Shown: positions 1 through 5,879, numbered from the stretch's first letter. The stretch is 5,879 nt of DNA from Escherichia coli (GCF_003334815.1 NZ_QOWO01000071.1), one strand, 5' to 3'. The notes: generated by a model not told the origin, from the sequence alone. Translations and numbers: made by a program.

Positions 1-128
1 ATGGCTCATGATGTCCCTCTGGGATGCGCTCCGGATGAATATGATGATCTCATATCAGGAACTTGTTCGCACCTTCCTGAGCGGTAGTAAAGTCCTAAAA
101 CTTTAACCTGCCGTTAATGTCAACCTTG

Positions 129-145
129 CGTAATGCACAATTACG
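129..145. promoter_or_regulatory. Inverted repeat CGTAAT-N5-ATTACG about 35 bp upstream of the lgoT start; candidate operator (possibly for the adjacent regulator LgoR)
   Basis: Seen in sequence: cgtaat (129-134), gcaca, attacg (140-145) form a perfect 6-bp dyad inside the AT-rich lgoT upstream region. The functional assignment is inference only. Confidence 0.25.
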
Positions 146-167
146 TAAACAATTAAAATTATAAATA

Positions 168-173
168 TAGGAG
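168..173 (+). promoter_or_regulatory. lgoT: Shine-Dalgarno sequence for lgoT
   Basis: taGGAGt, with AGGAG at 169-173 and a 6-nt spacer before the GTG start at 180. Confidence 0.7.
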
Positions 174-179
174 TCCGGC

Positions 180-1541
180 GTGGAAAAAGAAAATATCACC
201 ATCGATCCGCGTTCTTCATTTACTCCATCTTCGTCGGCAGATATTCCCGTGCCACCAGATGGATTAGTTCAACGCAGTACCCGAATTAAACGCATTCAAG
301 CCACCGCCATGTTGTTATTATTTTTTGCGGCGGTAATCAATTATCTCGACCGCAGTTCGCTGTCGGTAGTAAATTTAACGATTCGTGAAGAATTGGGATT
401 AAGTGCCACCGAAATCGGCGCTTTGCTCTCCGTGTTTTCACTCGCTTACGGGATTGCGCAACTTCCTTGCGGCCCACTATTGGATCGTAAAGGCCCACGC
501 CTGATGCTGGGACTGGGGATGTTCTTCTGGTCACTGTTCCAGGCCATGTCTGGCATGGTGCACAGCTTTACGCAGTTCGTGTTGGTGCGTATTGGTATGG
601 GGATTGGTGAAGCGCCGATGAACCCATGCGGTGTAAAAGTCATTAACGACTGGTTCAACATCAAAGAGCGCGGACGCCCGATGGGCTTTTTCAACGCAGC
701 TTCTACCATTGGCGTTGCCGTAAGCCCACCGATTCTGGCGGCGATGATGCTGGTGATGGGCTGGCGCGGGATGTTTATTACCATTGGTGTACTGGGGATT
801 TTTCTCGCCATCGGCTGGTATATGCTCTATCGCAACCGCGAGCACGTAGAACTGACTGCCGTTGAACAAGCTTATCTCAATGCAGGTAGCGTCAATGCCC
901 GCCGAGATCCGCTCAGTTTTGCCGAATGGCGCAGCCTGTTCCGTAACCGCACAATGTGGGGAATGATGCTCGGATTCAGTGGCATCAACTACACTGCGTG
1001 GCTGTATCTGGCCTGGCTTCCTGGTTACCTGCAAACAGCCTATAACCTGGATTTAAAAAGCACAGGATTGATGGCGGCTATCCCTTTCCTGTTTGGGGCT
1101 GCCGGGATGCTGGTCAACGGTTACGTTACCGACTGGCTGGTCAAAGGGGGAATGGCTCCGATTAAAAGCCGTAAGATCTGCATTATTGCCGGGATGTTCT
1201 GTTCTGCCGCCTTTACGCTGGTCGTACCGCAAGCGACAACATCCATGACAGCGGTTCTGCTGATTGGCATGGCACTGTTTTGTATTCACTTTGCCGGAAC
1301 ATCCTGCTGGGGCTTGATCCACGTCGCAGTTGCTTCTCGCATGACGGCGTCGGTGGGCAGTATCCAGAACTTTGCCAGCTTCATCTGCGCCTCTTTCGCG
1401 CCGATCATTACTGGTTTTATTGTTGATACCACCCATTCATTCCGTCTGGCACTAATCATCTGCGGTTGCGTCACTGCGGCGGGTGCACTGACGTACATCT
1501 TCCTGGTTCGTCAGCCGATCAACGCCCCACGGAAAGATTAA
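180..1541 (+). CDS. lgoT: MFS (ACS-family) sugar-acid transporter, L-galactonate:H+ symporter LgoT (YjjL), 453 aa
   Basis: Uninterrupted 453-aa ORF with a GTG start behind a good SD. The product is highly hydrophobic with multiple predicted TM segments, and carries the MFS motif A (G-x3-D-R/K-x-G-x-R) as 'GPLLDRKGPR' in the TM2-TM3 loop. Length and N-terminus (MEKENITIDP...) match my recollection of E. coli YjjL/LgoT, and it lies convergent with tsr as in K-12. Confidence 0.85.
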   Translation: MEKENITIDPRSSFTPSSSADIPVPPDGLVQRSTRIKRIQATAMLLLFFAAVINYLDRSSLSVVNLTIREELGLSATEIGALLSVFSLAYGIAQLPCGPLLDRKGPRLMLGLGMFFWSLFQAMSGMVHSFTQFVLVRIGMGIGEAPMNPCGVKVINDWFNIKERGRPMGFFNAASTIGVAVSPPILAAMMLVMGWRGMFITIGVLGIFLAIGWYMLYRNREHVELTAVEQAYLNAGSVNARRDPLSFAEWRSLFRNRTMWGMMLGFSGINYTAWLYLAWLPGYLQTAYNLDLKSTGLMAAIPFLFGAAGMLVNGYVTDWLVKGGMAPIKSRKICIIAGMFCSAAFTLVVPQATTSMTAVLLIGMALFCIHFAGTSCWGLIHVAVASRMTASVGSIQNFASFICASFAPIITGFIVDTTHSFRLALIICGCVTAAGALTYIFLVRQPINAPRKD

Positions 1542-3425: not shown

Positions 3426-3466
3426 CGTCACTTAAACGACGCCTTTGCCGCTCAACCGCAAAACTG

Positions 3467-3495
3467 ACCGCTTACATCCCTAAAATAACCACTCA
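3467..3495 (+). promoter_or_regulatory. BtsR (YehT, LytTR-family) binding site: direct repeats ACCGCTTA-N13-ACCACTCA upstream of btsT
   Basis: ACCGCTTA (3467-3474), a 13-bp spacer (catccctaaaata), then ACCACTCA (3488-3495). This fits the published YehT/BtsR motif ACC(G/A)CT(C/T)A repeated with a 13-bp spacer in the yjiY promoter. A third partial copy, ACCGCAAA, lies at 3455-3462. Confidence 0.75.
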
Positions 3496-3630
3496 GTTAT
3501 TTACCTTACTTTACGCGCGCGTAACTCTGGCAACATCACTACAGGATAGCGGTCAATTTACCTCCTCAAACGCAACGCAAACCTAGAACGGCTTCGGCCA
3601 ACTATTAATCAATACATGCCAGGTTTTACT

Positions 3631-5781
3631 ATGGATACTAAAAAGATATTCAAGCACATACCCTGGGTGATTCTCGGAATCATCGGTGCATTCTGCCTCG
3701 CGGTAGTTGCATTACGTCGGGGGGAGCACGTCAGCGCCCTGTGGATCGTGGTCGCCTCTGTGTCGGTGTATCTGGTGGCGTATCGCTACTACAGTCTGTA
3801 CATCGCCCAGAAGGTGATGAAACTCGACCCCACGCGCGCGACGCCTGCGGTTATTAACAACGACGGTCTGAACTACGTTCCGACCAACCGTTACGTGTTG
3901 TTTGGTCACCACTTCGCCGCTATCGCCGGTGCTGGTCCGCTGGTGGGTCCGGTTCTCGCCGCGCAGATGGGCTACCTGCCTGGCACGCTGTGGCTGCTGG
4001 CGGGGGTCGTGCTGGCCGGTGCGGTTCAGGACTTTATGGTGCTGTTTATCTCCTCTCGCCGTAATGGCGCATCTCTTGGTGAGATGATCAAAGAAGAGAT
4101 GGGACCAGTACCGGGGACTATCGCGCTGTTTGGCTGTTTCTTAATCATGATCATCATCCTCGCCGTCCTGGCGCTGATTGTGGTTAAAGCCCTGGCCGAA
4201 AGTCCGTGGGGTGTCTTCACCGTTTGCTCAACCGTACCGATTGCGCTGTTTATGGGTATCTACATGCGCTTTATTCGTCCGGGGCGTGTGGGTGAAGTCT
4301 CTGTCATTGGTATCGTGCTGCTGGTTGCCTCTATCTACTTCGGTGGCGTGATTGCTCACGATCCGTACTGGGGTCCGGCACTGACCTTTAAAGACACCAC
4401 CATTACCTTCGCGCTGATTGGCTATGCGTTTGTTTCCGCACTGCTGCCAGTGTGGCTGATCCTCGCACCGCGCGACTATCTGGCAACCTTCCTGAAAATC
4501 GGCGTTATCGTCGGCCTGGCGCTGGGTATCGTGGTGCTGAACCCGGAACTGAAAATGCCTGCCATGACCCAGTACATTGACGGTACTGGCCCGCTGTGGA
4601 AAGGCGCTCTGTTCCCGTTCCTGTTCATCACCATCGCCTGTGGTGCGGTATCTGGCTTCCACGCGCTGATCTCTTCCGGTACGACGCCAAAACTGCTGGC
4701 TAATGAAACCGACGCGCGTTTCATCGGCTACGGCGCAATGCTGATGGAGTCCTTCGTGGCGATTATGGCGCTGGTTGCTGCGTCCATCATCGAACCGGGT
4801 CTTTACTTCGCGATGAACACCCCGCCTGCTGGCCTTGGCATCACCATGCCTAACCTGCATGAAATGGGGGGCGAGAACGCGCCGATCATCATGGCGCAGC
4901 TGAAAGACGTTACCGCACACGCGGCAGCGACCGTCAGCTCCTGGGGCTTCGTGATTTCGCCAGAGCAGATCCTGCAAACCGCGAAAGACATTGGTGAGCC
5001 TTCTGTCCTGAACCGTGCAGGTGGTGCGCCGACGCTGGCGGTAGGTATCGCTCACGTGTTCCACAAAGTGCTGCCGATGGCTGACATGGGCTTCTGGTAT
5101 CACTTCGGTATTCTGTTCGAAGCACTGTTCATCCTGACCGCGCTGGATGCGGGTACCCGTTCTGGCCGCTTTATGCTGCAAGACCTGCTGGGTAACTTCA
5201 TCCCGTTCCTGAAAAAAACCGACTCTCTGGTTGCCGGTATCATCGGTACTGCGGGCTGTGTGGGTCTGTGGGGCTACCTGCTGTATCAGGGCGTGGTCGA
5301 TCCGCTGGGCGGCGTTAAGAGCCTGTGGCCGCTGTTCGGTATTTCCAACCAGATGCTGGCAGCCGTAGCGCTGGTACTGGGCACCGTTGTGCTGATTAAG
5401 ATGAAGCGCACCCAATACATCTGGGTAACTGTTGTTCCGGCTGTATGGCTGCTTATCTGCACCACCTGGGCGCTGGGCCTGAAACTGTTCAGCACCAACC
5501 CGCAGATGGAAGGCTTCTTCTACATGGCAAGCCAGTACAAAGAGAAGATTGCTAACGGTACTGACCTGACGACGCAGCAGATTGCCAACATGAACCACAT
5601 CGTTGTGAACAACTACACCAACGCAGGTCTGAGTATTCTGTTCCTGATTGTGGTGTACAGCATCATCTTCTACGGTTTCAAAACCTGGCTTGCGGTGCGT
5701 AACAGCGACAAACGTACTGACAAAGAAACACCGTACGTTCCAATCCCGGAAGGCGGCGTGAAGATCTCTTCGCACCACTAA
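3631..5781 (+). CDS. btsT: CstA-family high-affinity pyruvate/H+ symporter BtsT (YjiY), 716 aa from the ATG at 3631 (in-frame alternative ATG at 3616 would give 721 aa)
   Basis: Long ORF encoding a very hydrophobic polytopic membrane protein with many TM segments and CstA-like architecture. The MDTKKIFKHIPWVILG... N-terminus and 716-aa length match my recollection of E. coli YjiY/BtsT. It is divergent from tsr and preceded by BtsR repeats and a CRP site. Neither candidate ATG has a strong SD. Confidence 0.9.
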   Translation: MDTKKIFKHIPWVILGIIGAFCLAVVALRRGEHVSALWIVVASVSVYLVAYRYYSLYIAQKVMKLDPTRATPAVINNDGLNYVPTNRYVLFGHHFAAIAGAGPLVGPVLAAQMGYLPGTLWLLAGVVLAGAVQDFMVLFISSRRNGASLGEMIKEEMGPVPGTIALFGCFLIMIIILAVLALIVVKALAESPWGVFTVCSTVPIALFMGIYMRFIRPGRVGEVSVIGIVLLVASIYFGGVIAHDPYWGPALTFKDTTITFALIGYAFVSALLPVWLILAPRDYLATFLKIGVIVGLALGIVVLNPELKMPAMTQYIDGTGPLWKGALFPFLFITIACGAVSGFHALISSGTTPKLLANETDARFIGYGAMLMESFVAIMALVAASIIEPGLYFAMNTPPAGLGITMPNLHEMGGENAPIIMAQLKDVTAHAAATVSSWGFVISPEQILQTAKDIGEPSVLNRAGGAPTLAVGIAHVFHKVLPMADMGFWYHFGILFEALFILTALDAGTRSGRFMLQDLLGNFIPFLKKTDSLVAGIIGTAGCVGLWGYLLYQGVVDPLGGVKSLWPLFGISNQMLAAVALVLGTVVLIKMKRTQYIWVTVVPAVWLLICTTWALGLKLFSTNPQMEGFFYMASQYKEKIANGTDLTTQQIANMNHIVVNNYTNAGLSILFLIVVYSIIFYGFKTWLAVRNSDKRTDKETPYVPIPEGGVKISSHH
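3939..3946 (+). other. Chi site (5'-GCTGGTGG-3') on the + strand, inside btsT
   Basis: Exact octamer match at 3939-3946. Confidence 0.6.
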
Positions 5782-5879
5782 CCGTGTTTAGCCCCGCTTC
5801 GGTGTACTGACCCCAAAAAGTTGGACAGTTAAACACGAGGCATATAGGTCTGATTCCGATATTCAATTGGAGTCAGACC

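Follow-up and report, generated by a model that had tools for sequence, protein, structure and literature searches.

The question raised by this locus is whether a stretch of Escherichia coli DNA (GCF_003334815.1, NZ_QOWO01000071.1) holds an undescribed system or a familiar piece of the chromosome. The window, meaning the whole 5,879-nucleotide stretch analyzed here, is made up of three intact genes, lgoT (+ strand), tsr (- strand), and btsT (+ strand), whose proteins are 98.7-99.7% identical to those of E. coli K-12. The window consists of known core genes with routine insertion sequence (IS) polymorphism; no undescribed system is present, and its content is already known. We are highly confident that the locus is a K-12-like piece of the E. 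coli chromosome that lacks the 4-hydroxyphenylacetate (hpa) cluster, carries normal control sites, and lies between two unrelated insertion sequences.

The gene set, order, orientation, and regulatory sites are the same as in K-12 MG1655 (b4356-b4354, 4,589,129-4,594,722). E. coli chromosomes match bases 1-5802 collinearly with 100% identity, and many of them are annotated IS5/ISKpn26 - lgoT - tsr - btsT. The earlier note, made from the sequence alone, had described a conserved core locus that should align collinearly over nearly its whole length. The gene identities and the collinearity of 1-5802 bear this out. The context does not, as lgoR is replaced by ISKpn26, the btsT-yjiX hairpin is split by IS150, and synteny with the standard E. 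coli map is broken at both window edges, the outcome that the note itself had named as refuting its reading. The verdict that nothing novel is present is unchanged.

The lgoT gene (also known as yjjL) is located at 180-1541 on the + strand and starts with GTG. By orthology and MFS family hits, it encodes an L-galactonate:H+ symporter of the MFS/ACS family with 453 amino acids. In a protein comparison, LgoT and K-12 b4356 are identical at 447 of 453 residues over the full length with zero gaps, and MFS motif A, which the earlier note had reported, reads GPLLDRKGPRLML in the translation. L-galactonate transport by LgoT has been demonstrated experimentally (bioRxiv 10.64898/2026.05.20.726482). 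LgoT would thus import L-galactonate with a proton, as already described. Membership in the DgoT subfamily of D-galactonate transporters (TIGR00893) was rejected at 262.1 bits, below the cut-off of 395; judged by sequence, the likeness is at the paralogue level only, as expected for LgoT.

Between the convergent lgoT and tsr genes, a terminator scan and folding identified a hairpin with an 11-bp stem at 1549-1578. Its folding energy is -17.0 kcal/mol on one strand (z = -3.3) and -17.9 kcal/mol on the other (z = -3.8), and it is likely a bidirectional terminator.

The tsr gene is located at 1590-3254 on the - strand and encodes the serine chemoreceptor (MCP-I), a protein of 554 amino acids. The assignment is based on K-12 orthology, on the NCBIfam equivalog NF011615 (a full-length match over 1-554 of 554 at 1222.9 bits, above the cut-off of 947), and on the Pfam domains TarH (1-176), HAMP (217-263), and MCPsignal (327-484). 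The C-terminus is ...GENWETF, and the NWETF pentapeptide serves CheR/CheB tethering. Tsr is identical to K-12 Tsr at 549 of 554 residues and carries a three-amino acid QQH insertion (554 vs 551 amino acids). The tsr promoter was scanned for with TAAAGTTT-N11-GCCGATAA, which we take to be the sigma-28 consensus. A single match was found in the window, a sigma-28 (FliA) type promoter with the sequence TAAAGTTT-N11-GCCGAAAA at 3285-3311 on the - strand, with one mismatch and 0.01 matches expected by chance. Tsr would be expressed from this FliA promoter, sense serine, and signal to CheA/CheW.

The spacer between tsr and btsT is a known presence/absence site of the hpa cluster. The cluster is missing from the K-12 MG1655 spacer, as it is from the window. 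In hpa-positive E. coli (strain 38, O157:H7), tsr and btsT flank the cluster, and ~11 kb of hpa genes stand in place of window 3316-3447. Strain 38 has an extra insertion of ~123 bp just before btsT that is absent from the window.

The btsT gene (also known as yjiY) is located at 3631-5781 on the + strand and, by K-12 orthology and a CstA-family hit, encodes a pyruvate:H+ symporter of the CstA family with 716 amino acids, of which 714 are identical to K-12 b4354. The start at 3631 is the RefSeq start in strain C1; another ATG, in frame at 3616, is not annotated as the start. Identification as CstA proper (equivalog NF011590) was rejected at 1013.1 bits, below the cut-off of 1188; the protein is the BtsT paralogue. 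Upstream of btsT, a perfect palindrome of 13+13 nt was read directly from the sequence at 3396-3425. A perfect CRP core, TGTGA-N6-TCACA, lies inside it at 3403-3418; this motif match is unique in the window and was found in 0 of 200 shuffles. The btsT promoter also contains a BtsR (YehT) binding site at 3467-3495 on the + strand, a motif match to the direct repeat ACCGCTTA-N13-ACCACTCA that occurs once in the window, with ~0 expected by chance. Both the CRP core and the BtsR repeat are retained in the hpa-positive strains, and window 3442-3499 has exactly the sequence of the published 'yjiY YehT bs' binding oligonucleotide (PMC4847170). BtsT would import pyruvate and be controlled by BtsS/BtsR and cAMP-CRP. 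The claims that the three large open reading frames encode known proteins and that the intergenic regions contain the expected regulatory elements (sigma-28 promoter, CRP core, and BtsR repeat, once each, plus the lgoT/tsr terminator hairpin) were thus upheld.

The claim that the window has no insertion sequence ends or transposase reading frames was wrong. Both edges are IS termini, ISKpn26 (IS5 family) with three transposase codons on the left and IS150 (IS3 family) with 17 insK codons on the right.

Bases 1-77 (- strand) are the terminal 77 nt of the transposase-proximal end of ISKpn26, with 100% identity to ISKpn26 copies on plasmids and chromosomes. The inverted repeat GGAAGGTGCGAACAAG is read on the - strand, and the transposase ATG is at base 9, reading leftward out of the window with its first three codons inside. 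The terminal inverted repeat and the adjacent transposase start are identical to annotated copies, and in the RefSeq record of strain C1 the CDS of an 'IS5-like element ISKpn26 family transposase' runs up to window base 9. In IS-free E. coli, and in most other genomes, homology begins at base 78. Of 5,426 complete E. coli genomes, 73 carry the IS5 junction at base 77/78. In these 73, which include strains C1, HS30-1, and 14EC001, ISKpn26 is found between lgoD and lgoT, and 1-5802 is 100% identical with the IS5-lgoT junction included.

In K-12 MG1655, lgoR is found upstream of lgoT. Alignment to K-12 and strain C1 shows that the sequence upstream of base 78, lgoR included, is replaced by ISKpn26, leaving a 102-bp remnant of the lgoR-lgoT spacer (78-179, + strand). 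The lgoR gene is likewise replaced in strains C1, 203740, and HS30-1. Strain C1 lacks ~1 kb of K-12 sequence (lgoR) between the two ISKpn26 flanks, and a 4-bp target-site duplication around the element is absent, the flanking bases being ...CAAG and TGAG.... Because the flanks differ and ~1 kb is missing, they fit an IS-associated deletion and not a simple insertion. An ISKpn26 copy would have replaced lgoR and the promoter-proximal part of lgoRT in an old, lineage-marking event.

The lgoRT genes are described as a single operon (PMC5934670), and yjjM/lgoR is given as essential for growth on L-galactonate in a passage of PMC3588905 that cites Reed 2006. In the window, the lgoT orthologue is intact, and the operon, with its placement divergent from lgoD, is broken. 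A promoter scan found no sigma-70-like promoter on the + strand within 1-179. The lgoT gene has likely been severed from the promoter of its operon and from the regulator that growth on L-galactonate requires. Strain C1 also carries a frameshift in lgoD. This frameshift is not lineage-wide, as strains 203740 and HS30-1 have an intact lgoD; decay of the whole L-galactonate pathway was therefore rejected, and only the loss of lgoR is claimed.

At the right edge, alignment to K-12 and C1 places the IS150 insertion point within the hairpin between btsT and yjiX. The truncated 5' half of this terminator-like hairpin (AGCCCCGC-TTCG-G) remains at 5790-5802 on the + strand. In K-12, where btsT is followed by the intact hairpin and then yjiX, the structure folds at -19.8 kcal/mol (z = -3.55), whereas the window has no hairpin signal (z = -0.09). 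In the C1/HS30-1/14EC001 group, btsT is followed by yjiX-yjiA, whereas the window continues into IS150 from base 5803. Bases 5803-5879 (- strand) are the terminal 77 nt of the IS150 right end and are identical at 77 of 77 positions to that of K-12 IS150 (locus positions 1700-1776). Of the K-12 element (insJK), the window holds this terminal segment only, comprising the right terminus TGTACTG... and the insK 3' end, both identical to reference IS150. The last 17 codons of insK/orfB (…GLTPIEYRNQTYMPRV, then the stop) are found on the - strand at 5879-5829 and point toward btsT, and matching sequence in other genomes is annotated as 'IS3-like element IS150 family transposase'. The 30-mer across the junction, GCCCCGCTTCGGTGTACTGACCCCAAAAAG, defines a btsT-IS150 junction found in 0 of 5,426 complete E. 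coli genomes. IS150 would have landed in the btsT-yjiX hairpin in a seemingly recent, strain-private event. It has likely left btsT without its 3' hairpin and ~1.4 kb apart from yjiX-yjiA.

The two IS stubs are equal in size at 77 nt each. This suggests that an entire contig from a short-read assembly (de Bruijn k = 77), ending in multi-copy repeats, makes up the window, the one basis for this reading being that both stubs are exactly 77 nt. Since the window edges are repeat boundaries, arguments about context from the window alone are limited.

Other explanations of the two IS ends were weighed. The insertions could be adaptive regulatory rewiring, in which the loss of lgoR and the IS5 end alter lgoT expression and IS150 uncouples btsT from yjiX-yjiA. 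This is unlikely, even though IS150 destroys the btsT 3' hairpin, the IS5 replacement has become fixed in a lineage represented by 73 complete genomes, and lgoR/yjjM is a repeat mutational target. Mutations in lgoR/yjjM arose during mouse-gut evolution, and an IS186 insertion in the gene arose in laboratory evolution. However, the side of IS5 next to lgoT is the one with the transposase promoter and is directed away from lgoT, and 1-179 is without a sigma-70-like promoter on the + strand. The restriction of the IS150 junction to this window is also what a recent and possibly neutral hop would give. It is improbable that the lgoR replacement and the IS150 hop were selected, for example because L-galactonate uptake became constitutive or was silenced and the coupling between pyruvate uptake and yjiX-yjiA changed, or that the segment was inverted or moved by IS-IS recombination.

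An assembly artefact, in which a repeat k-mer was misjoined to the end of a unique contig, could account for the IS150 junction or for both stubs. Stubs of 77 nt are typical of graph overlaps, and complete genomes lack the IS150 junction. Nevertheless, an artefact is very improbable: 73 finished genomes give independent confirmation of the IS5 junction, and the IS150 junction coincides exactly with the canonical terminus, as expected of a true insertion and not of a random chimera.

With IS termini at both edges, lgoT-tsr-btsT could also be viewed as a composite-transposon-like mobile unit able to reach plasmids or other chromosomal sites. This is extremely unlikely. The two elements belong to the IS5 and IS3 families, whose transposases and ends are unrelated; one transposase therefore cannot act on both outer ends, and the segment is for this reason not a composite transposon. 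Moreover, the 73 genomes with the same IS5 junction carry it at the native locus beside lgoD, and their btsT side is free of IS. In the plasmid collection, long matches span only 78-5802, without the IS ends, and are in mislabelled, chromosome-like records of 0.37-4.9 Mb; the remaining hits there are to the IS ends. The composite transposon was thus rejected, as the flanking elements are not the same or compatible and the IS-bounded unit was not found at a second genomic or plasmid location.

It is scarcely credible that the intergenic regions or antisense reading frames hide an undescribed small gene, RNA, or defence element: long antisense frames exist (e.g., 516 amino acids opposite btsT and 115 across the tsr 5' end), but known genes contain all or most of each, known promoter and operator sites account for the intergenic sequence, K-12 annotation lists nothing between lgoT, tsr, and btsT, PADLOC and NCBIfam gave zero matches (E <= 0.1) for the ten largest unannotated, antisense, or edge frames, and an Rfam scan of both window strands gave zero matches at E <= 1. 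A search for direct and inverted repeats returned only short, low-identity, chance-like pairs inside coding sequence, with no arrays or long inverted repeats. Generic sigma-70 promoter and terminator scans gave counts at or below the shuffle expectation, and only the lgoT/tsr hairpin was meaningful. The earlier note's statements that the window has no CRISPR repeats, no orphan reading frames with coding character, and no support for an undescribed system agree with these searches and with the K-12 orthology of the genes.

The preferred reading is thus a K-12-like chromosome segment bounded by two unrelated insertion sequences. Its biological weight is small: the functions of the three genes and of the sites that control them are either textbook matter or recently characterised, and IS5/IS150 polymorphism is routine. 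For the ISKpn26-bearing lineage, because lgoR has been lost to the element, induction of L-galactonate catabolism would probably be impossible.

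Both edges of the window are IS termini, contrary to the earlier note, which had described a conserved locus free of IS ends. Bases 1-77 are an end of ISKpn26 (IS5 family), and bases 5803-5879 are the right terminus of IS150 (IS3 family). A composite transposon is ruled out since the two families are unrelated, and in the plasmid collection the segment is present only without the IS ends, in chromosome-sized records. The stubs are equal in length, exactly 77 nt each, and the window boundaries are thus probably technical and not biological. Most simply, the window would be an entire short-read contig (de Bruijn, k = 77) that ends where unique DNA reaches multi-copy repeats.

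The three long ORFs in the six-frame listing of the window are LgoT (180-1541, + strand, 453 aa), Tsr (1590-3254, - strand, 554 aa), and BtsT (3616-5781, + strand, 716 aa from the RefSeq start at 3631). Identities to E. coli K-12 MG1655 are 447/453, 549/554, and 714/716, respectively. LgoT matches profiles of the MFS/ACS type and, in keeping with its being a paralogue, scores under the cut-off for the DgoT subfamily. Its identity as an L-galactonate:H+ symporter was recently shown and the structure solved (bioRxiv 10.64898/2026.05.20.726482). BtsT matches the CstA model with a score under CstA's own cut-off, as expected of a paralogue. An in-frame ATG at 3616, 15 nt 5' of the annotated btsT start, would prepend MPGFT; RefSeq and the K-12 annotation both use the downstream ATG at 3631.

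Tsr possesses TarH, HAMP, and MCPsignal domains and a C-terminal NWETF, and exceeds the curated NCBIfam Tsr equivalog cut-off (1222.9 bits vs 947). The sole indel relative to the 551-aa K-12 protein adds QQH to the flexible C-terminal linker (residues 520-522; window 1668-1676 region), and residue 548, two residues ahead of NWETF, is changed from E to G. Because the curated model has 554 positions, K-12 Tsr is the shorter variant.

That no novel system is present, as the earlier note had concluded, was borne out. An Rfam scan of the window (E <= 1) gave no match, nor did PADLOC or NCBIfam on ten antisense, shadow, and edge ORFs (62-516 aa), and repeats within the window were at chance level only. 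The K-12 annotation has no small gene or RNA between lgoT, tsr, and btsT. All contents of the window are already known.

The 48-bp gap between the convergent lgoT and tsr contains a hairpin (1549-1578, 11-bp stem) that is stable on both strands (-17.0 and -17.9 kcal/mol; z = -3.3 and -3.8). The tsr-btsT spacer (3255-3630) carries three sites, each found once in the window with a chance expectation of essentially zero. These are a FliA-type promoter of tsr (3285-3311, - strand; TAAAGTTT-N11-GCCGAAAA), a perfect CRP core TGTGA-N6-TCACA (3403-3418) inside a perfect 13+13 nt palindrome read from the sequence (3396-3425), and a LytTR-type direct repeat (3467-3495; ACCGCTTA-N13-ACCACTCA). The 'yjiY YehT binding site' oligonucleotide of PMC4847170 (YehT being BtsR) agrees with window 3442-3499 at every base, so the regulatory elements anticipated for these genes are indeed in place.

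Direct adjacency of tsr and btsT, as in the window, is observed in only 2,755 of 5,426 complete E. coli genomes. In the examined members of the non-adjacent group, the hpa (4-hydroxyphenylacetate catabolism) cluster of roughly 11 kb replaces a 133-bp stretch (window 3316-3447); the corresponding interval in hpa-positive strain 38 is 4576-16306 of the locus (L004). The CRP core and the BtsR repeat are retained in both forms, and the window represents the hpa-less, K-12-like one. That K-12 and B/C/W-type strains differ in the presence of hpa has long been known. Strain 38 also has an extra ~123 bp directly before the btsT ribosome-binding region (L004 about 16180-16300), absent from the window, which we take to resemble an ERIC/IRU repeat.

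At the right edge, 5803-5879 is identical to the K-12 IS150 right terminus (77/77) and includes the final 17 insK codons (- strand). The insertion point lies within a hairpin, AGCCCCGC-TTCG-GCGGGGCT, located 3' of btsT in K-12 and strain C1. Its folding energy when intact is -19.8 kcal/mol (z = -3.55); in the window the hairpin is lost (z = -0.09). IS150 would abolish this structure and put ~1.4 kb between btsT and yjiX-yjiA. The btsT-IS150 junction occurs in 0 of the 5,426 genomes.

Megablast matches of the whole window to these genomes are 100% identical and collinear but span only 1-5802, leaving 5803-5879 outside. The annotation beneath this match includes an 'IS5-like element ISKpn26 family transposase'; in strain C1 its CDS runs leftward and reaches into the window as far as base 9, where it ends. 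The junction across base 77/78 is found in only 73 of 5,426 genomes, most others matching from base 78 on. In the alignment with K-12 the IS stands in place of ~1 kb; the replaced interval begins immediately 5' of the lgoR start codon and stops 102 bp short of the lgoT start. The flanks (…CAAG / TGAG…) have no target-site duplication, and the loss of lgoR looks like an IS-associated deletion. Strains 203740 and HS30-1 have the same structure. A lgoD frameshift is annotated in C1 only (L001, the C1 locus, 1732-2753), with lgoD intact in the other two; the frameshift is thus either peculiar to that strain or a sequencing error, and loss is claimed for lgoR only.

Downstream of yjiA in ISKpn26-bearing strains (L001 11035-12496; L006, a further such locus, 10535-11996), the place that the mrr-hsd restriction region has in K-12 is taken by brnA, a brnT toxin gene with a frameshift, and a copy of IS1, adjoining mdtM. 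The 102 bp retained 5' of lgoT include a short inverted repeat, CGTAAT-gcaca-ATTACG (window 120-150), that could be a candidate operator for a GntR-type regulator.

The IS faces lgoT with its transposase-promoter end, which is directed away from that gene, and the promoter scan gave no sigma-70-like match on the + strand of window 1-179. The lgoRT genes are described as a single operon divergent from lgoD (PMC5934670), and the passage of PMC3588905 citing Reed et al. 2006 gives yjjM/lgoR as required for growth on L-galactonate. In this lineage, lgoT would thus be an intact gene severed from its operon promoter and regulator.
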